DNA from: Mycoplasmatales bacterium
GTDB taxonomy: Bacteria > Bacillota_I > Bacilli_A > Mycoplasmatales > JABAAY01
DNA: 64,000 bases
Reading direction: 5' to 3'
Assembly (NCBI GenBank): GCA_014238225.1
Contig: JABABL010000002.1
Span: forward strand, 17,664-81,663
Positions 1-35,382 of this stretch are shown here, one piece after another; within the stretch, counting starts at the first letter, position 1, and each line of letters opens with the position of its first letter. Under the pieces are notes generated by a model, which was not told the DNA's origin, did not search any database, and saw only the letters and a list, made by a program, of their open reading frames with translations. A program made the position numbers and the translations under genes.

Positions 1-274
1 CAATTTTTGTTTTTACAGCATACTTGTTTAAATTAGTTGTTTTAATAACAAGAATATTATCTCTGTTTAAACTGTGAAATCCACGTTTAGGAATTCTTCT
101 GAACAAAGGTGTTTGTCCCCCTTCAAATCCAGGACGAGTTCCGCCACCAGATCTAGAGTTCTGCCCCTTCATTCCTTTACCGGATGTTTTTCCCCAACCA
201 GAAGAGGTTCCTCTTCCAATTCTCTTTTTTCTGTGTCTTGCACCCGGAGCAGGTTGGAGATTATTTAGTTTCAT
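1..274 (-). CDS. rplO: 50S ribosomal protein L15 (N-terminal part; 3' end outside window)
   Basis: Minus-strand translation from ATG at 274 gives [66 protein letters not shown], a canonical L15 N-terminus. It directly follows rpsE with a 14-nt overlap, so no rpmD (L30) lies between them. Confidence 0.9.
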
Positions 275-1016
275 TTTTTATTCTTTTCTGCATTCTTGCT
301 TCTGCCATTTCTGCACGTTCCTCTTTAGATATTATTTTACTATTTCTCTCTTCAATTGTCATTAATTTTGACAATGCTTTGATTGTAGCAGCAACAACAT
401 TAATTGGATTATTGCTACCTAGTGATTTAGCATACACATCGGTTATTCCTGCTAACTCTAGCACGGACCTTGCTGTTCCACCAGCAATAATTCCAGTACC
501 CGCTTTTGCAGGTTTTAATAAAATAATAGAAGCTCCGTATTTAGCTTGTACAACATGTGGAATGGTACAACCTTTAAAAATAGGAACTTGAATAGTGTTT
601 TTGTTAGCTTTCTTGAATGCTTTTTTTATAGCTGCTGGAATTTCAGTTGCTTTTCCATTATAAAAACCAACTTTCCCTTTTTTATCTCCAACTACAACTA
701 AGGAAGTAAAACGAAAATTTCTTCCACCCTTGACAACTTTAACAACACGGTTAATTTTTATAACTTTTTCTGTCATGTCGCTGCGAGGACGTTCAAATCT
801 TCTACCACCCTGTGGACGTTCACGACGTGATCTAGGATTTTTATCCTCTCTATCGTTCTCCTTAGGCATAGGTGCGCCTGTTCCACTAGAACCTGTGTTA
901 CGTGTACCGGCATCATCGTTTGATGTAGGTTGATTCATTGTTTTTGCCGCTTCTTTTTCTATTTGTTTATCCAAAATTTGTTCTTTTTGTAGATTTTTAT
1001 TTTCAGTATTAGACAT
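261..1016 (-). CDS. rpsE: 30S ribosomal protein S5 with ~80-aa N-terminal low-complexity extension
   Basis: 251-aa ORF. The core '[50 protein letters not shown]...[19 protein letters not shown]' is canonical S5. It lies between rplR and rplO. Confidence 0.93.
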
Positions 1017-3741: not shown

Positions 3742-4037
3742 TAGACTTTTCCCTTTCTTTCAAGAATTTTAACTAAACGACAATGTTTTTTCTTGGACTG
3801 CTGTCTTGTTTCTTCAATTGAAACTAGGTCACCTATTCTTGCTCTATTTTCTTCATCATGTGCGTGATATTTTTTACTAGACAAGTAAGCTTTTCCATAT
3901 AGTTTGTGTTTTTTGTAAGTGCTTACAAGAACAACAATGGTTTTATCATTTTTGTCACTAACAACTGTTCCTTTGTAACTTCTTCTTCCTTTGGTTGAAA
4001 TTATTTCTTCTGTTTTGATTGGGTTCTTAGCAGCCAT
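3741..4037 (-). CDS. rpsQ: 30S ribosomal protein S17
   Basis: 98 aa. '[58 protein letters not shown]' matches S17. Confidence 0.92.
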
Positions 4038-4615
4038 TATTTACTCTCTTTTACAACTGGTTTTTTTGTTGTTGTTTTTTTAGCAACAGGTTTCACTGTA
4101 GTGGTTTTTTTAACAACAGGTTTTACAACATTTTTTTTAGCAGTTTCTTTTGGTTTGGACACAACTTCTTTAGCTTTTTTACTAGAAGAACCGCTACTTT
4201 CCTTAACAACTGTAGCTCTGGTTGCACTTCTTTTAATTTCGGTTAATTGTTTAGGTTTGCTTGTGGTCTTTTCTTTGGAGTCGGCGGCTTTCGCTTTGTT
4301 CATGCCTTCTTCTAGAGCCTTCATCATTGATTCTTGTTTTTCTTTTTCTAGATCTTGACGTTTTTTCTCAGCAGCCTGTATCTTTTCTAGTGAAGGAGGT
4401 TGAAATTTAAGATCAATTTTTTCACCATTTTTTTCTCTAATTTTTAAAATAGTCAATATTCTAGCAATATCTTTTCTCAATAATTTAAATCTGTGTGGGC
4501 TATCTAATTTACCAGTAACAGATTGAAATCTAATGGCGAATAACTGTAATTTTAGTTCATGAACTAATTTAACAAGTTCCTTTGTTGTTTTTTCATGTAT
4601 TTCATTAACTAACAT
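4037..4615 (-). CDS. rpmC: 50S ribosomal protein L29 with ~125-aa C-terminal K/E/T/V-rich tail
   Basis: 192 aa. The first ~65 aa are L29-like ('[45 protein letters not shown]'). The rest is low complexity and ends '[33 protein letters not shown]'. Confidence 0.88.
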
Positions 4616-6047: not shown

Positions 6048-6317
6048 TTAACCTTTCCTGCCTTTTCCATGCCCTGTATATTTCCTTGTTGGAGAAAATT
6101 CACCAAGCTTATGCCCTATCATGTCTTCGGTAACAAATACTGGAATATGTTCTCTTCCATTATGTACACCAAAAGTGTGACCAATGAACTCAGGAAAAAT
6201 AGTGCTTCTGCGTGATCATGTTTTAATGATTGACTTTTTACCTTCTAAATTTTGCTTCTCAACTTTTTTTAATAAGTGATCAGCTACATATGGTCCCTTT
6301 TTAACACTTCTTGCCAT
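6048..6317 (-). CDS. rpsS: 30S ribosomal protein S19
   Basis: [19 protein letters not shown]...[18 protein letters not shown], with one internal TGA-Trp. 89 aa. Confidence 0.92.
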
Positions 6318-7159
6318 TATTTGCTTTTCCTTCTTCTAATAATTAATTTTGTAGATTGTTTTTTATTGTTTCTAGTCTTTACACCCAGAGCTTTTTTTCC
6401 TCATGGAGTTAAAGGTGCTGCTCTACCAATAGGTGATTTTCCTTCACCACCACCGTGAGGGTGGTCATTAGGGTTCATAACAGAACCTCTAACAGTTGGT
6501 CTTATTCCTTTTCATCTATTTCTACCAGCTTTTCCAAGCTTAACTAAGTTGTGTTCGGAATTGCCAACAGTACCTATTGTAGCTCTACACTTAGCCAAAA
6601 TTTTTCTGGTTTCACCGCTAGAAAGACGAATAATTACGTACTTGCCTATTTCATCTTTTCCCAGTACTTGTGCGCTTGTTCCAGCACTTCTGCATAACTG
6701 AGCTCCCTTGCCAGGGCTCATTTCTATATTGTGTACAAAGGTACCTTCAATAATGTTTTCTAGAATCAAACAATTTCCATTTTTGATAGGCACGTTGTTA
6801 CCACTAATAATTTTTTGCCCAATGTGAGCTTCGGATGTAGCAAGAATATATCTCTTTTCGCCATCTTCGTAATTTACTAGACAAATGTTGCATGTACGAT
6901 TGGGATCGTATTCCAATGTGGCAATTCTTCCATATATATTATCTTTGTTTCTTTTAAAGTCAATGACCCTGTATTTTCTTCTTGAACCACCGCCACGATG
7001 TCTAATAGTGATTTTGCCTTGGTTGTTTCTACCAGCATTTTTCTTTTTGGTTTTCAACAGAGATTTTTCAGGATTCTTAGTTGTCAAATAGTTCGTTAAA
7101 TCTAAAAGAACAGTATTTCGTTGTGCATTTGTATTTGGTTTAAATCTTTTTAGCGCCAT
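6317..7159 (-). CDS. rplB: 50S ribosomal protein L2
   Basis: 280 aa across TGA codons. '[15 protein letters not shown]', '[17 protein letters not shown]', '[16 protein letters not shown]' match L2. Confidence 0.94.
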
Positions 7160-7812
7160 TATTTTGTGTTCTCTTTCGTTTTGTTCAATAGTTTGTTTTG
7201 AACTTCCATTACGGATTCTTTATCAATAACAATATAATCAGCGTGCATTATTTGAATAATGTTACATTGATTTATTTCTTCATACTCTATTAATGGTACA
7301 TTGCCAGTTGCCAAGCTTAAGACAGGATTAAATTTTTTGGAAAGGATAAGAATTTTTTTATCTGAGTACCCTAGATTTTTAACAACTGCAACAATTCTTC
7401 TAGTTTTTGGTTCTGCAATTTTCATTTTGTCTACTACAATTAATGCGTTTTCTTTACATTTTTGGCTAAATACTGATCGGTATCCTAAATTTCAAACTTT
7501 CTTGTTTAATTTTACTTGATAGTTTTTTTCCGTTGTTGGTCCAAATACTACACCACCAGTACGTCACTGTGGTGATCTTATGGAACCATGACGAGCTCTT
7601 CCTGTACCTTTTTGTTTTCAAGGTTTTCTTCCGCCACCAGCTACTTCGTCTTTTGTTTTAACTTTGTGGGTTCCTTGCGTAGCCATTCTTCTTGTTGCTG
7701 TTACAACATCAAAAATAACTGGGTTATTAGGCTCAATACCAAAAACAGAACTATCCAAGGTTATTTTTTCTTTTTTTTCACCTTTTAAATTAAAGACAGG
7801 AATGTTAACCAT
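7159..7812 (-). CDS. rplD: 50S ribosomal protein L4
   Basis: 217 aa joined across three TGA codons that I traced codon by codon: '[13 protein letters not shown]...[35 protein letters not shown]'. Its TAA overlaps the rplB ATG, so no rplW lies between L4 and L2. Confidence 0.92.
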
Positions 7813-8681
7813 TATTGTTTACTACTTTCTTTGTCTTCATTTTCTATGGACTCATCGTTCTTTTCTTTTGATTCACTGGCATCGCTGTTGCTTTTAGTAT
7901 TTTCTCTTTCTCTTTGGGAGCGGACTTCATTAATTATTGCTTCCATTTCTTCAACAGAGGAATCGGTTGTGACACTTGCTCCTCATTTTTTAGCTTCTTC
8001 AAGTAATTGGTTTTTCAATTCTATTTCTTTTAAGTTGACTATTTTTATAATTTCTTTTGCTTTTGTTTTCTTTTTGGAAGAAATAATTTTAACTAAGGAC
8101 TTATTTGGGCCTGGTATTGCTCCTTTAACCATTAAAACTTCATAGTTTTTGTCAATCATAATCACAACTAAATTTTCAGATGTTGCAGTTCCGCCACCCA
8201 TCTGACCGGGAAGTTTTTTTCCTGGCATAACTCTATTTGGAGAAATTGGACCCATGGATCCGGGACGTCGGTGATATCTAGAACCATGACTCATAGGTCC
8301 TCTAGATTGATTATGTCTTTTAATCGATCCTGCAAACCCTTTTCCCTTGCTTACACCTTGAACACTGACAATGTCGCCCGGTTCAAAAATGTCCACGCCT
8401 AAATTGTCGCCAACACTTGTGTTTTCCAACCTCATATTTCTTATTTCTCTGATTGTTTTATAGGATTTTAAGTTATTTTTTGTGAAATATCCTTTTTGAG
8501 GTTTATTTAGTTTTTCAGTGGGTTCAATTGCTAGTTTATAACTATTGTATCCGTGTTTTTTTTCAGTTTTAATTTCGCAAACATGGTTAGGTGGTAAATG
8601 AATTATAGAAACCGGAATAGAATGACCTTTATCACTAAAAATTTGTGTCATTCCTATTTTTCTTCCTATTAAACCTTTCAT
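7812..8681 (-). CDS. rplC: 50S ribosomal protein L3 with acidic C-terminal extension
   Basis: Start 'MKGLIGRKIGMTQIF' at 8681. 'SVQGVSKGKGFAGSIKRHNQSRGPMSHGSRYHRRPGSMG' matches L3. It reads through TGA at 7983-7985 into an E/S/D-rich tail and ends at TAA 7812-7814, overlapping the rplD ATG. 289 aa. Confidence 0.9.
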
Positions 8682-8685
8682 ATCT

Positions 8686-8994
8686 CTACAACTTAATTTC
8701 GATGTTAACGCCTGATGGTAAAGCCATTCTTTGTAAAACATCCATAGTGTCCCTATTAAAATTTCAAATTTCTATTAATCTTTTGTGTGTTCTTAATTCA
8801 AACTGTTCTCTAGAATCTTTGTATTTATGCACAGCTCTTAGAATAGTAAAAATTTCCTTCTTTGTTGGAAGTGGAATTGGACCAACAATATTAGCACCTG
8901 TACCTTTTGCAACTTCGATTATATTCACAACTGATTTGTCCAACATGCGATAGTCATAGGACTGTATTTTGATTCTTATTCTTTTCTTTTTCAT
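8686..8994 (-). CDS. rpsJ: 30S ribosomal protein S10
   Basis: 102 aa across TGA 8764-8766. '[17 protein letters not shown]...[40 protein letters not shown]...[11 protein letters not shown]' matches S10. Confidence 0.93.
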
Positions 8995-10848: not shown

Positions 10849-11316
10849 TTATTTTTTACTACTAAAATGTTTTTTGTAGTCTCCGTACCCCTTTTCGTTT
10901 AATTTGTCTTCGGGAATGAAAGATAGACTTGCAGAATTAATGCAGTATCTCATACCGTTTGGTGAAGAAGTGTCTCCCTTGAAAAGATGCCCAAGGTGGG
11001 AACCAGAAGTTGATTTTACTTCTGTTCTAATCATTCCGTGCGAAACATCTTTTTTTTCTATAACTTTATCACTGTCAATTACAGCTGTAAATGAAGGTCA
11101 TCCAGTACCAGAATCGAATTTATCCAAACTTGAAAAAAGAGGCTCTCCAGAAACTACATCAACATAAATGCCCTTGCCTTTTTCATTTCAATACTCGTTA
11201 TCAAAAGCAGGTTCTGTTCCTGAATTTTGCGTAACATGATACTGAAGTTCAGTTAATTTCATTTTTAAATCTGTTTTTTTCGTCTCGAAAGTGTTTTTTT
11301 TCTTGTTTTTGAACAT
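10849..11316 (-). CDS. msrB: Peptide-methionine (R)-S-oxide reductase MsrB (form without Zn-binding CxxC pairs)
   Basis: 155 aa. '[23 protein letters not shown]', 'FDSGTGWPSF', 'HLGHLFKGD', 'RYCINS' match MsrB. The positions of the two CxxC motifs read DVVS and STSGS. Confidence 0.85.
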
Positions 11317-11324
11317 CAAAGTTA

Positions 11325-15150: not shown

Positions 15151-15561
15151 CTAGTTTCCTGTTTTACTTCCGTAAAGACTTCTGCTTTTTTTTCTTCCCT
15201 CAACACCTGATGTATCCAATGCTCCACGAATAATATGGTATCGTACTCCTGGCAAATCTTTCACACGGCCGCCTCTAATCATAACTAAGGAGTGTTCTTG
15301 AAGATTGTGTCCTTCTCCAGGAATGTAAGCTGTGACCTCCATTTTGTTTGTTAGACGAACTCTTGCGTATTTCCTCAAGGCAGAATTAGGTTTTTTAGGT
15401 GTCATGGTTGCAACCCTTGTACATACTCCTCTTTTTTGTGGTGCTGCTAATGTGTTATATTTCTTTCTAACACTATTGAAGCTACGTTGTAAAGCAGGCG
15501 ATTTGCTTTTTTTTACTTTTACTTTTCTTCTTTTTCTTATTAATTGATTGACTGTTGGCAT
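15151..15561 (-). CDS. rpsL: 30S ribosomal protein S12
   Basis: 136 aa. '[13 protein letters not shown]', '[18 protein letters not shown]', '[30 protein letters not shown]' match S12. Confidence 0.97.
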
Positions 15562-15671
15562 AGTTCTTCTAATCCTTAAAATTAATTATATAGAAAAATA
15601 TCTAAATGCTTAAATGAATTGTATAAATTAATAAAAATATATATAATTAAATTAAGAAATTAAGGAGAAAC
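15562..15671. promoter_or_regulatory. Divergent AT-rich promoter region between rpsL (-) and rplW (+)
   Basis: 110-nt intergenic region. On the plus strand there is TATAAT at 15642-15647 and a strong AAGGAG at 15662-15667, 4 nt before the rplW ATG. The rpsL promoter must lie in the same interval. Confidence 0.35.
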
Positions 15672-16349
15672 ATGGAATTAGAAACATATTCAATAATAGG
15701 AAAGCCCGTCATAACTGAAAAATCATTTAGATTGATGCAAGAAGAACAAAAGTATACCTTTGAAGTAAATCCACGAAGTCACAAAATACAAATTAAACAC
15801 GCGTTTGAAAAAGTGTTTAGTGTGAAAGTAGCTAAAATTAGCGTTATAAAAGGAATAAAGAAAAAGAAAAAAAGAGGGAAATACCAGGGAATGACAGCTG
15901 CACAAACAAAAGTTATTGTGAAACTAAAACCAGGATACAAACTAAATGTCTTTGAAGAAGAAAAATATATGGTTGACAATGCTGCAATAAAGGCTGTCTC
16001 GGATGATATAAAGGCAATTTCAAAATCCTCGCCAAAATCCACTGCTAAAAAAACAGTCGAGACAAAACCTACGACTAAGAAAACAACTGTAGCCAATTCC
16101 ACTGTCAAAAAAACAGTTGGAACAAAACCTGCTGCTAAAAAAACAACCGTACCTAAACCTGCTGCTAAAAAAACAACTGCTGCAAAACCCGTTACTAAAA
16201 AAACAGTTGGAACGAAACCTGCTGCTAAAAAAACAACTGCTGCAAAACCCGTTACTAAAAAAACAGTTGCGACTGCCCCCGCCGTTAAGAAGACAGCAGT
16301 AACTAAACCTGCCTCTAAAAGTGCCAGTAAACCATCAACTAAAAAATAG
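15672..16349 (+). CDS. rplW: 50S ribosomal protein L23, relocated, with ~125-aa Lys/Thr/Ala/Pro repeat tail
   Basis: 225 aa. The N-terminal ~95 aa, 'IIGKPVITEKSFRLMQEEQKYTFEVNPRSHKIQIKHAFEKVFSVKVAKISVI...KVIVKLKPGYKLNVF', match the L23 fold signature. The tail consists of (KKTxxxKPAA)n modules. Confidence 0.88.
   Translation: MELETYSIIGKPVITEKSFRLMQEEQKYTFEVNPRSHKIQIKHAFEKVFSVKVAKISVIKGIKKKKKRGKYQGMTAAQTKVIVKLKPGYKLNVFEEEKYMVDNAAIKAVSDDIKAISKSSPKSTAKKTVETKPTTKKTTVANSTVKKTVGTKPAAKKTTVPKPAAKKTTAAKPVTKKTVGTKPAAKKTTAAKPVTKKTVATAPAVKKTAVTKPASKSASKPSTKK
16155..16274 (+). repeat. Direct tandem duplication (60-nt period) inside the rplW tail
   Basis: 16155-16209 is identical to 16215-16269 ('aaacctgctgctaaaaaaacaactgctgcaaaacccgttactaaaaaaacagttg'). 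Shorter related modules lie upstream from ~16060. Confidence 0.9.
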
Positions 16350-16384: not shown

Positions 16385-16597
16385 TTACTCGTGGATGTTA
16401 TCACATGCTTCTTTAAGAAGTTTAATGCGGTGAATAATCAAACTGAAATTTGTATGTTCTTGGCTGATGGGTTCTTCCCCTAGTTCCTTAGTAGTCAAAC
16501 CAGCAACTTCAACACTCAGGGTATTAATATCGTTTTCAATTGCAAAGTATCTTTTCATGATTTCTTCCCTTGTTATCTCTGTTTTCGTTTTTTTCAT
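16385..16597 (-). CDS. Hypothetical 70-aa protein (helical, acidic)
   Basis: ATG..TAA ORF: MKKTKTEITREEIMKRYFAIENDINTLSVEVAGLTTKELGEEPISQEHTNFSLIIHRIKLLKEACDNIHE. It is divergent from the three-paralogue operon. I recognise no motif. Confidence 0.4.
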   Translation of the reverse strand: MKKTKTEITREEIMKRYFAIENDINTLSVEVAGLTTKELGEEPISQEHTNFSLIIHRIKLLKEACDNIHE

Positions 16598-16767: not shown

Positions 16768-18012
16768 ATGTCAAAAAAGAAAATATTGAAAACAATTATC
16801 AGCGCAGCAAGTGTTTCAGCACTTGTTGGTCCCGTTGTAACAGTTATAAAAACTTCTCAAAAAGAAGATGTTAACGATAATGTAACTGTGGAAGAGGTTA
16901 ACGACCACGAAACAGTGGCAGTAACCCTGGAGCAAAACGAGAGAATAGATGCTACCGATATTCCTATTATTATCGGTGGGTGAATGAACATAGCTGCTCA
17001 GCTGGGAATTGCTCATGATTCTTCATCTGGTAGAGGCTGAAATAATATGTTTTGAGGAAATCAATGAAACTTTGACTGAAATCCCACAAGCGCACTAAAA
17101 GAATATAAAGATGGATTAATTGGATACCAACACCCTTTATCGGATCCAAACCTTGTAAAAGATGGTGTTTTTACCTACTCTGATTACCGTAGTGCTGACA
17201 CACGAACAGGTAATAGACATGCTTATGTTTTAAACGATGGTTCTTTCAATTCCACTTTAGACTACGATAACTATGAAACGGATGTTTTTTATAACTACAA
17301 TTCTGGTGATGGTGGTTCCCCTATTTTGACCTCAAAATTAGAAAGTAGTTTTAAACTTGGAAGTAATCCAAACTTACAAGATGATGTAAGTTCCTCCTTT
17401 CTTCTGTTGTTGTACAGTATGTTCATTACTGGGGAGGGTGCGAAATTAACTGGCGACCCTACATGAGATACTGCTCCTGAAACTCTTTTCTTATCACCTG
17501 TTTTGCAGTTACGCAGAAGCAGTCCTCCTACCGGATACAATGATCTTTCTATTGCCGCAGCTATCGGAACCGCAGCAGTGGGGGCAATTATTGGAGGAGT
17601 TAGCGGAGGACCTATCGGTGCAATATCTGCAGCTGCTGGTCTGGGCTTAACTATGTTATTTACACCACAGTTAAATGGAATGGGTATTGCCGGAGTGAAA
17701 ACTTCTCTTGAACAACCTAACTATATATCAATTAAAGGTAGTAAAGACTTTCTATGATGAGAAAGCGTTAGATTAAAAAATAAATACTTTGAAGATGATT
17801 CATACAATATTGAGAAATTTTTCATGACCGACTTGACTTTAACTAGTACATTTAATGCGAAACTTAATTATGATGGGATGAATGGGTGAAAACCATGGGC
17901 TTCAATCACAGAACCTGGTGTATCATTTTCTTATATAGCGGAAGGTACCAGGACAATCACTAATTCAGAAACTTTCGATTTTTCTAATTGAATAATCGAG
18001 AAGAAAGACTAA
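16768..18012 (+). CDS. Paralogue 1 of 3: secreted or membrane protein of unknown family (414 aa)
   Basis: Open under code 4 (many TGA-Trp codons). Signal-like N-terminus 'MSKKKILKTIISAASVSALVGPVVTVIKTSQ' without a lipobox Cys. Motifs 'GRGWNNMFWGNQWNF', 'DDVSSSFLLLLYSMFITGEGAKLTGD', the Gly-rich hydrophobic stretch 'LSIAAAIGTAAVGAIIGGVSGGPIGAISAAAGLGLTMLF', and 'LKNKYFEDDSY...YDGMNGWKPW...FDFSNWIIEKKD'. Confidence 0.8.
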
Positions 18013-18018
18013 CAAATC

Positions 18019-19290
18019 ATGAAAATAAAAAATAGAAAAAAATTCACGCAAACACTGTTGGCCGCTTCAGGATCTGCTGCTCTAATAGGTCCTGCAATCA
18101 CAATGTTCAATACACAAACAGAAGTTAATGTTAATGATGATGAAAACATCGAACAAGTCACAGACTCTGAAACACTAAGCATAGATTTAAGCAAAACAGG
18201 TTCGTTGTGAAGTCCTGATATAAATTCTTTTTTTGGCGGTGATGCTGTATTCACTGCATCTTTGGGATTCGTTCACTCTGCATTAAGTGGTAGAGGATGA
18301 TCCAACATGTACTGAGGAAATGAGTGAACTTTTGATCACTCAACACACACGAATGAGAATTTAATATTTCGTGATTATGGTTTAGGAAGTCAAAAAGGAA
18401 TTGCTGCTTCGAGTGGAATAACAAACACCGCAGGAAGATCTTTCAAATACTCTGATCATAGAGAACAATTAGTTACTGAAAAGCAATACAAAAACGGCAA
18501 TTCAATTATTTTGAACAGAGGATCGTTAAATTCAACACTTGCATATGAGAACTACGAGATTGATGTCACTCAAGAGAGAAATGACGCTTCAACAAAAATA
18601 TTTGAGAGTAATTTACACAGTAACTTTACACTAGGGGAAAACCCCAACTTGCAGGATGATGTGAGTTCTTCCTTTCTTCTGTTACTTTATAGTATGTTCA
18701 TAACAGGAGAGAGTTACGAATTAACAGGTGATAGAACAATGGAAACTACTCCTGAAATTCAGTTTATTGAACCTGTCTTTCAACTAACACGAAACAGCGA
18801 ATTAAATAAGTACAATGATGTTTCCCTTGCTTCTGCTGTTACATCAGGATTATTGGGCGCGATTATCGGTGGAGTAAGTGGAGGACCTGCTGGTGCCATA
18901 GCCAATGGTGTTGGGTCCGCATTAATCGGTTTGTTTATGCCACAAATGAATGGAGCAGGTGCTGAAGGAGTTAAAATGTCATTAGAAGAACCTGATTTTG
19001 TTCCTATTGATGGAGCAAAAGCATTTCTTTGAGATAGTTCTGTAATGTTAAAGAACAAATATTTTGAAGATGAATCATATACTACAGATAAGTTCTTTAT
19101 TACTGACATTAGTTTAAACATGAATTTGGAAACAAAATTAAGTTATGACGGATGAAATGGCTGAAAGCCTTACGCAATAATGTCAAGCCCTTCTGTTTCA
19201 ATGTCTTATGTGGCTGAGGGTACTAGAATTATCACTACGGCAACTACTTACGATTATTCAAACTGACTTATAGAAAAGAGAGGGATATAG
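18019..19290 (+). CDS. Paralogue 2 of 3: secreted or membrane protein of unknown family (423 aa)
   Basis: Starts 6 nt after paralogue 1. 'MKIKNRKKFTQTLLAASGSAALIGPAITMFNTQ', 'GRGWSNMYWGNEWTF', 'DDVSSSFLLLLYSMFITGESYELTGD', 'VSLASAVTSGLLGAIIGGVSGGPAGAIANGVGSALIGLFMPQM', 'YDGWNGWKPY...YDYSNWLIEKRGI'. Confidence 0.8.
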
Positions 19291-19291
19291 A

Positions 19292-33668: not shown

Positions 33669-34712
33669 CTATGCTTTGTAATAAATTCTAACGCTTGGGC
33701 TCATTGTGGAACTAATGGCAATTCTCTTAACATAGTCGCCTTTGGCACTAGAAGGTTTAGAACTAATTATTTTACTTAGTATAAAGTCGTAATTCTCAAT
33801 TAGTTGCTTATCTGTGAAGTTACTTTTCCCTAGTACGCAGTGAACATTGGCATCCTTATCTGTACGGTACTCAATCATGCCTTGTTGTATTTTTTTTATT
33901 ATAGAAACAACATCCGTTGTAACTGTACCTAATTTGGGGTTTGGCATCAAACCCTTGGGACCTAGTAGTTTTCCTATTTTTCCAATTTCAGGCATCATTT
34001 CAGGTGTAGCAATTACGTTATCAAAGTCAAATCATTTTTGATTTTTAATTCTTTCAATCATATCTGCATTTCCAACATAATCAGCACCCGCTTCTTTGGC
34101 CTCTTTTTCTTTAGATTTAGTCAATACAAGAATTTTAACTTTTTTACCTGTTCCATTGGGAAGGGCAAGCGTGCCTCTTAATTGTTGATCAGCATGTTTA
34201 GTATTTAAGTTTAAGCGAAATACAACATCAATTGTTTCAACTTTGTCTTTTTTAATAACTTTTTTAATAACGTTAATTGCTTCCGCTATTTCATAATTTT
34301 TTAACTGATCAATGTTTTTTAACTGAGCTCGGTAAAGTTTCCCTTTTCGTTCAATAATACTTTTTCTTTTTGCGGGCTTTTTTTTCGCTACCGGAGTAAC
34401 AGTAACTTTTTTTTCATCAACAGAATTTGAATCTTGTTGGCTGTTTTTTTCAACTTCTTCAACTTTTTCAATAGTGTCCGTTTTAAAAAAGTCTTCATTG
34501 TTTTCTGAGGGAGGAGGAGTAATTAGGACTTCTTTTGTTTTGACTTCTTCCTCTTTTGAATCAGTATTAGAAGCAACTATTTCGTGCGAAACATCTGTAA
34601 CAGCTAATTGAGCTACTTCTTCCATGAAATCATTTTTCTCCTCTAAATTAGATTTCTCATCTGTTGCCGCTCTTGCTTTATCAACAACTATTGTTTTCTT
34701 AATTTCAGCCAT
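33669..34712 (-). CDS. rplA: 50S ribosomal protein L1 with ~115-aa acidic N-terminal extension
   Basis: 347 aa across TGA 34032-34034. The core '[30 protein letters not shown]...[21 protein letters not shown]...[36 protein letters not shown]' is canonical L1. Confidence 0.9.
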
Positions 34713-35323
34713 TATTCTTTATTCCCCTCTGGGTTGTCTTGATTGTCTTCCTCGTTTTGTTCTTTATTTTGTTCTTCTGTGCCATCCAAATTAATTCCAT
34801 CATCTGCTGGAGCTACTGTAGTTTGCGCTTCCTCCAAAACAGCTTGGTATGCAGCTTCTGCCATTGCTTTTTCTTCAGAAGGAAGTGGAGCTTCTATTAA
34901 TTCATGCTCAAACCCTTCTACTTCTATACCCATGTTGCGTGCTGTTCCTTCAATAACTTTAATAGCAGCCTTTATGTCGTTCGCATTGAGATCAACTAAC
35001 TTGTACTCTGCTATTTCTGTGATTTGTTTTTTGGAAATTTTTCCCACGTTCTCTCTTCCAGGTAAAGAAGAACCTTTTTTAACACCTGCTGCCTTCTTTA
35101 TCAATATAGATGCAGGCGTGGTTTTCAAAACAAATGAAAAACTCTTATCTTCATACGCAGTTATAATAACAGGCACAACATCTCCCATTCTTTCCTTTGT
35201 TTTGTCGTTAAATTCGATACAGAATTGAGGCATATTAATACCTAAAGATGCTAATTCAGCACCTGGTTTTGCCTGTCCTGCGTTAAATTGTATCTTTGCT
35301 ATTCTTTTTATTTTTTTAGCCAC
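34712..35323 (-). CDS. rplK: 50S ribosomal protein L11 with ~65-aa acidic C-terminal extension
   Basis: GTG start at 35323, with GGAGA 6 nt upstream. '[38 protein letters not shown]...[18 protein letters not shown]' matches L11. The tail ends '[21 protein letters not shown]'. Confidence 0.88.
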
Positions 35324-35382
35324 GAAACTTCTCCATTTCTGCGTGGTTAAACCCACTCACTAATTTTATATATTATATACAA

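Follow-up and report, generated by a model that had tools for sequence, protein, structure and literature searches.

The L3-L4-L23-L2 string is among the most conserved gene orders in biology, and a gene for ribosomal protein uL23 that stands outside of it raises several questions at once: whether it is the true rplW of the organism, how it came to its present place, and what the long repetitive tail of its product may do. Such a gene is found at positions 15,672–16,349 on the plus strand of the window, by which we mean the whole stretch of 64,000 nucleotides that was analysed. The window belongs to a metagenome-assembled genome (MAG) of 680 kb in 60 contigs, with 32.8% G+C and an estimated completeness of 88%. 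Long reading frames appear in it only if TGA is read as tryptophan, and the window thus reads as Mollicute DNA with genetic code 4. Our overall explanation, which we consider quite probable, is that this ORF represents the sole uL23 gene of the organism, relocated by duplication followed by loss of the original copy and carrying a tail directed to the rRNA. For comparison we used above all the MAG "Mycoplasmatales bacterium bin29s", which is the only other species of the genus and of the GTDB family and is referred to below as the congener.

The sole uL23 gene of the genome

The ORF runs through 225 codons without interruption up to its stop. Residues 8–92 of the product match the Pfam family Ribosomal_L23 (PF00276, model positions 2–85/86) with an E-value of 2e-22 and a score of 79.8 bits, the gathering cut-off being 30.8, and among solved structures the uL23 chains of the Staphylococcus and Bacillus ribosomes come nearest (E 3e-18). 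The uL23 core, residues 1–95 (positions 15,672–15,956, plus strand), was modelled by AlphaFold2, run with an alignment of 35 L23 sequences, with the alpha/beta elements of the core in place and a pLDDT of about 90–98. P12 and E16, invariant among the 35 aligned L23 sequences, are both kept in the rplW product, as are all seven of the near-invariant residues of that alignment (T15, K17, F30, V32, K38, G69 and G73). E16 sits within a TEKS motif. The Glu residue of the (T/S)EK motif in E. coli uL23 is the docking site of trigger factor, and we take E16 to be its equivalent; trigger factor and Ffh are both encoded by the genome.

When the core is compared to that of the congener, 3, 0 and 28 substitutions are found at the first, second and third codon positions, respectively (113 codons), a distribution indicating strong purifying selection. 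A PF00276 profile search of the 680-kb assembly gives a single match, which is this ORF; the congener likewise has one match, and two L23 matches in one genome were seen in none of the 90 other genomes scanned. The preliminary description of this DNA had allowed for a canonical rplW elsewhere, which would reduce the present gene to a non-ribosomal paralogue, but neither the genome nor the congener holds a second L23 gene. To judge by its sequence, the ORF is the organism's one functional uL23 gene, and its product is presumably present on the ribosome.

The closed slot in the S10 operon

The window carries this operon on its minus strand in the order S10, L3, L4, L2, S19, with rplW missing. 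The TAA stop codon of rplD (7159–7812, minus strand; Pfam) at positions 7161–7159 overlaps the ATG of rplB (6317–7159, minus strand; Pfam) at 7159–7157. Since the two codons are merged in the sequence TAATG (7157–7161, minus strand), the slot that normally holds rplW has no room for it and is closed. The congener shows the same organisation on two contigs. The first one (JABAAY010000021, 8.5 kb) carries S7–S12 divergent from L23, which is followed by the first gene of a group of three paralogues that we describe below, and the second one carries L3-L4-L2-S19 with L4 abutting L2.

We found rplW between rplD and rplB in 57 of 57 other loci and in neither of these two species. The order L3-L4-L23-L2-S19 is kept in all 29 other Mycoplasmatales genomes (16 genera, 14 families) and in all 28 loci sampled from the rest of the class. 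The suggestion that rplW had been relocated is thus borne out, the gene being displaced from the S10 operon and the slot closed in both species, and the comparison of synteny with relatives that had been proposed along with it shows an arrangement common to the congener and absent from the 57 other Bacilli sampled. Scans of GTDB genomes and JGI metagenomes gave no further members of the lineage.

This operon cluster was compared across 204 genomes by Brandis 2021 (PMC8046335). RplW is among the proteins of the concatenated alignments of that study, and genes absent from any genome were left out of these alignments (PMC8046335), so that none of the 204 genomes would seem to lack rplW at its usual position. 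An rplW gene that has left the S10 operon is a rarity, yet it falls within a described class of events.

Origin of the displaced gene

A phylogeny of the L23 core had been suggested as a means to separate translocation within the genome from xenologous replacement. In the latter case the rplW gene next to rpsL would have come from a different organism, possibly along with lineage-specific genes of its neighbourhood, and the native operon copy would have been lost. The location of rplW beside lineage-specific genes without a Pfam family (a 70-aa ORF and the three paralogues) is compatible with such a history, and so is the poor resolution of the L23 tree. The placement of the lineage, however, speaks against it. 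In the tree built from L4, L2 and S19 the lineage forms a long isolated branch inside the order, and in the L23 core tree it is again a long isolated branch, to which the nearest rows by path are same-order lineages; the length and the placement of the L23 branch thus mirror those of the L4+L2+S19 tree. The rplW product also falls outside of a group with 90% support that contains all 28 other-order sequences. A tree forcing the 30 Mycoplasmatales L23 proteins into one clade was not rejected (p-AU 0.63) and had the higher likelihood, by 5.5 units. The L23 alignment comprises 96 columns and has little power, which makes this a weak test with which a transfer from within the order is still compatible.

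No foreign source of the gene is suggested by similarity searches. The nearest L23 cores are those of same-order lineages, with 46–50% identity. A search of 1.84 billion representative proteins returned the congener alone at E ≤ 1e-30, and all the other matches reach at most about 50% identity and mostly cover the core only, so that there is no candidate donor. With respect to the alternative posed at the outset, the trees thus lean towards an origin inside the order, or at the least give no grounds to reject it, while a transfer between members of the order stays compatible with it.

According to Brandis 2021 (PMC8046335), genes leave the cluster via duplication and subsequent loss, the gaps between operons are the usual sites of invasion, and horizontal transfer from close relatives is allowed as a source of the duplicate; the last point may also be read in favour of a replacement. 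The signs by which duplication-then-loss is recognised in that work, namely an empty slot, a single copy elsewhere and a gene tree compatible with the species tree, are all found here. As in the "deletion" events of Brandis 2021, the essential gene is gone from its slot in an otherwise intact operon and is present as a single copy elsewhere, long-distance horizontal transfer is not indicated, and the landing site is an inter-operon gap. Unlike in those events, the gene concerned is rplW, and it landed only about 8 kb away, inverted and inside the same super-cluster. Considering both sides, we regard xenologous replacement as quite improbable, and duplication followed by loss appears to be the best reading of the sequences in comparison with the capture of a foreign gene.

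If duplication-then-loss is accepted, the common ancestor of the two-species lineage would have established a copy of rplW about 8 kb away from the operon slot, in the gap between rpoC and rpsL, in inverted orientation and back to back with the promoter of the str operon. The original copy between rplD and rplB would then have been cleanly deleted, and rplD would have been re-coupled to rplB through the TAATG overlap. Neither repeats linking the old slot to the new site nor a mobile-element scar were found, and an intermediate genome with two L23 copies was not encountered among the 90 other genomes scanned.

Expression signals and neighbouring genes

The rpsL gene (S12; 15,151–15,561, minus strand; Pfam PF00164, E 2e-36), which is the first gene of the str operon, is divergent from rplW, and the 110-bp region between them (15,562–15,671) presumably serves as a bidirectional promoter region. 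On the plus strand a TATAAT hexamer at 15,642–15,647, read directly and located 24 nt before the ATG, is the candidate −10 box of rplW, and the Shine-Dalgarno sequence AAGGAG occupies positions 15,662–15,667, 4 nt before the ATG at 15,672. Both elements had been pointed out in the preliminary description; both are present and identical in the congener. The candidate −10 box of rpsL, and hence of the str operon, is a TATAAT on the minus strand at 15,585–15,590, 23 nt before the start codon, and is conserved in the congener as well. There is no −35 box upstream of the rplW TATAAT, and for this reason it was left unlisted by the promoter consensus scan.

The ribosome binding site was also said to be one of the few strong ones in the window. 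This holds: the six-base AAGGAG stands ahead of the start of only one other gene of the window, rpsR (58,414–58,701), and most window genes have a match of 4–5 bases or none. The spacer differs from that of the congener at 6 of 110 positions, whereas in the L23 core the third codon position is changed in 28 of 113 codons. The spacer is thus far better conserved than synonymous sites and is under constraint, as would be expected of a shared promoter region. The candidate promoter at rplW is probably in use. Outside the operon, rplW would rely on its own −10 box and its unusually strong Shine-Dalgarno sequence for the supply of one L23 per ribosome.

The back-to-back TATAAT boxes are placed within an inverted repeat (15,570–15,592 and 15,640–15,662) that is 78% complementary. 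Duplication of the rpsL promoter, giving mirror-image promoters, was considered and is not claimed: the in-register identity is not above that of shuffled sequences (p 0.16–0.43), and the similarity does not exceed that to the upstream regions of other genes either. At the other end of rplW no intrinsic terminator was found, and shuffled sequences fold as well as the 3′ region does (z 0.91).

The view that rplW is divergent from rpsL and monocistronic agrees with its position, alone on the plus strand and flanked on either side by a minus-strand gene. The further proposal that it heads a plus-strand block together with the operon of three paralogues (16,768–20,524, plus strand; no Pfam family) had to be abandoned, since a conserved ORF of 70 aa on the minus strand (16,385–16,597) intervenes. 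This ORF is convergent with rplW and lies 35 bases from its stop codon. It differs from its counterpart in the congener by 8, 3 and 17 substitutions at the three codon positions, the plus-strand frame that overlaps it is interrupted by a stop codon in the congener, and no Pfam match was obtained at E ≤ 1. The ORF shares the orientation of the ancestral rpoC–rpsL gap, which in Bacillus holds the L7Ae-like gene ybxF; that the ORF is a diverged relative of ybxF is conceivable.

The cluster rpoBC-str-S10-spc is otherwise Bacillus-like, with a second invaded inter-operon gap between tuf and rpsJ, where genes for MsrB (SelR domain) and a PepF-like protein are found (window positions 10,849–11,319, minus strand). 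An Rfam search of the 64-kb window gave no family at its gathering threshold, although the window includes the regions of the L10, L11, S10 and spc operons, in which other bacteria have ribosomal leader RNAs.

The repeat tail of the rplW product

The core is joined to the tail by a predicted alpha-helix, residues 96–117 (15,957–16,022, plus strand; DSSP on the model, pLDDT about 68), the sequence of which is conserved in the congener. Residues 118–225 (16,023–16,346, plus strand) were modelled by AlphaFold2 without secondary structure at a pLDDT of 47–67 and are predicted to form a disordered polycationic tail of about ten modules, each of 10 aa and composed of K, T, A, P and V. Residues 116–225 contain 28% K, 23% T, 16% A, 10% P and 10% V, and the net charge of residues 96–225 is +28. 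At the DNA level, TRF and a repeat search delineate a tandem repeat with a period of 30 nt and nested periods of 60 and 90 nt (16,033–16,320, plus strand), the inner 60-nt unit having 89% matches; the units differ by point changes and remain in frame. The architecture initially proposed for the protein, an L23 core followed by a repeat tail, is confirmed by Pfam, by the AlphaFold2 model and by the DNA tandem repeat. An A7 run is present in each of seven repeat units (window 16,047–16,263, plus strand, with spacings of 30 or 60 nt), and the +1 frame through the repeat is open for about 70 codons. Slippage products arising from these A7 runs are conceivable.

Could the junction or the repeat tail be mis-assembled in the metagenome bin, or the ORF be a decaying extra copy? 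The MAG is split into 60 contigs, and short-read assembly easily collapses or expands tandem repeats. Against this concern stands the recurrence of both the gene order and the kind of tail in the separately deposited MAG of the congener (contig JABAAY010000021), in which the L23 tail is shorter and has a different repeat count. The two tails differ by whole-codon indels and many substitutions, which argues that the tail is real and fast-evolving. The point differences between the in-frame repeat units, the strong purifying selection on the core and the status of the ORF as the only L23 gene are likewise hard to reconcile with an artefact. In addition, contigs from the runs of two studies, one of them possibly the source sample, contain 86–92% of the words sampled from the stretch. 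The suspicion of an assembly artefact raised in the preliminary description is thus dispelled by the independent assembly, and we consider an artefact of either kind to be exceedingly improbable. The tail of rplW would lengthen and shrink through slippage of the 30-nt repeat.

The tail had been called histone-H1-like. It does share with the C-terminal domain of histone H1 and with chlamydial Hc2 a low-complexity, strongly basic repeat rich in K, A, P and T; unlike in those proteins, a globular H1 domain is missing, and it is a ribosomal protein that the repeat extends. The Pfam family HC2 (PF07382) matches this low-complexity sequence with 30.2 bits, below the gathering cut-off of 40. We rejected the tail as a histone homologue because the match is sub-threshold and compositional, and we place it with the basic extensions of Mollicute ribosomal proteins. 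The likeness to H1 and Hc2 is one of composition and not of descent.

Basic extensions around the tunnel exit

The proteins uL23 and uL29 are neighbours at the ribosome tunnel exit. The uL29 gene of the window, rpmC (4037–4615, minus strand), encodes 192 aa, of which residues 4–58 form the L29 domain (Pfam), and a 126-aa tail that ends in three KPxxKK(T) modules. When all ORFs of the genome were scanned, the KPxxKK module turned up in two proteins only, uL23 and uL29, and the uL29 of the congener carries KPxxKK modules too. The rplW repeat and the rpmC tail also share stretches of nucleotide sequence, identical at 23 of 24 and at 42 of 51 positions, a likeness that codon bias could produce in any two genes encoding this peptide motif.

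Extensions of this kind are common in the order. We extracted uL22, uL23, uL29 and uL24 from 29 of its genomes and found at least one of uL22, uL23 and uL29 to be clearly extended in 24–25 of the 29, the carrier varying by lineage. The rplW product has about 130 extra residues, while L23 is at most 111 aa long in all 28 non-Mycoplasmatales Bacilli sampled. It exceeds the E. coli and B. subtilis proteins by more than 20 aa in a region predicted to be disordered and is thereby an extended protein in the sense of Xue et al. (bioRxiv 10.1101/2021.12.18.473270). These authors report extensions on 11 of the 52 ribosomal proteins of M. pneumoniae, among them three of the four that surround the exit (L22, L23 and L29); the L23 extension is one of those predicted to be disordered. 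The same work found that ribosomal-protein extensions are more frequent in Mollicutes, that transposon disruption of the M. pneumoniae extensions costs fitness, and that these extensions, for which no function is known, are located over 30 Å away from the exit.

The genome of M. pneumoniae was recognised in our set by an L23 identical in length and sequence to chain s of PDB entry 7OOD. It encodes an L23 of 237 aa and an L29 of 111 aa, while in a sister genome of 580,076 bp the two proteins have 106 and 200 aa, respectively. The tail of this 200-aa L29 has tandem repeats of its own. M. pneumoniae uL23 resembles the rplW product described here in that its canonical core is continued at the C-terminus by about 140 residues, K/T/E/V/A-rich and predicted to be disordered, and extensions are also found on its exit-site neighbours uL29 and uL22. 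There are differences as well. The M. pneumoniae rplW remains between rplD and rplB. Its L23 tail is not alignable to ours, contains many acidic residues and has a net charge of +18 as compared to +28, whereas here the tail is a near-regular 10-aa tandem repeat the module of which is reused in uL29. Other tailed Mollicute L23 proteins from public sequence collections (such as P0030, 188 aa, and P0050, 202 aa) resemble it in that they have C-terminal A/T-K-K-P-A/V runs of the AKKPAAKK type, but their cores resemble another family of the order and are only 38–41% identical to ours over the matched stretches, so that the tails must have arisen independently.

The rplW tail thus adds an example to a trait already known from Mollicutes, and it stands out only by its regularity, its charge and the presence of one module on two exit proteins. 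Several other ribosomal proteins of the window are also enlarged: S5 (251 aa; 261–1016, minus strand) has an N-terminal extension of about 80 aa, L3 (309 aa; 7812–8741, minus strand) an acidic C-terminal tail and L1 (347 aa; 33,669–34,712, minus strand) about 145 extra N-terminal residues, and L11 (214 aa; 34,712–35,356, minus strand) and S6 (134 aa; 59,209–59,613, minus strand) are extended too.

Possible role of the tail

With their similar tails, uL23 and uL29 would jointly bring about +47 net charges to the 50S surface beside the tunnel exit. The tail would most likely lie on peripheral rRNA and neutralise or stabilise it, in the way modelled for the uL22 and uL29 extensions of M. pneumoniae. 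Within our main explanation we see about an even chance that binding of rRNA is indeed its role. The 23S rRNA of the organism is of full length (2894 nt), so the tails are not stand-ins for lost rRNA, and replacement of lost rRNA by the tail is ruled out.

Another possibility is that the protein has a second, non-ribosomal job, with the tail acting as a DNA or RNA binder similar to H1 and Hc2 or as a tether between the exit face of the ribosome and the anionic cell membrane, and with the separate promoter allowing expression in excess of ribosomes. The composition of the tail is indeed like that of H1 and Hc2 tails, and there is the weak HC2 match of 30 bits; this match, however, is compositional and below the gathering score, and HU is encoded in the genome. 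A separate supply would fit the own candidate promoter of rplW and a Shine-Dalgarno sequence of the strongest class in the window, but the tailed L23 of M. pneumoniae is encoded inside its operon, which means that such a tail needs no separate expression. Both carriers of the module are located next to the tunnel exit, and this exit is turned towards the membrane while proteins are inserted co-translationally; on the other hand, trigger factor and Ffh are present, and thus the normal partners of the exit site exist. The variation of the tail carrier among uL22, uL23 and uL29 from one lineage to another, as between M. pneumoniae and the 580,076-bp sister genome, suggests that what is selected is charge at this location, whichever protein provides it. 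On balance a second job of this kind seems very unlikely to us.

The role of position may be given still more weight if the KPxxKK tails of uL23 and uL29 are seen as a selected "polycation collar" that tethers the exit face to an anionic membrane or nucleic acid. What would matter then is the location of the tail and not the protein that carries it, the tail being found on uL23, uL29 or uL22 across Mollicutes. If this were true, the placement of rplW outside the operon would let a wall-less, genome-reduced cell tune the amount of the tether separately. We hold this to be rather unlikely. Binding of the tail to rRNA appears to be favoured over a tether to membrane or nucleic acid, which is the less likely function.

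Biological meaning

The relocation of rplW and the tail of its product are a real but modest curiosity, and they do not represent a new kind of system. The order L3-L4-L23-L2 is so conserved that a clean, lineage-fixed exception is useful. The relocation of rplW marks a little-known marine mycoplasma-like family and offers a natural test of whether a protein of the S10 operon can stay balanced when it is expressed from a promoter of its own. The tail adds a clear case to the basic disordered tails around the exit tunnel of Mollicutes, a habit that takes the form, in this lineage, of one repeat module shared by two neighbouring exit proteins.
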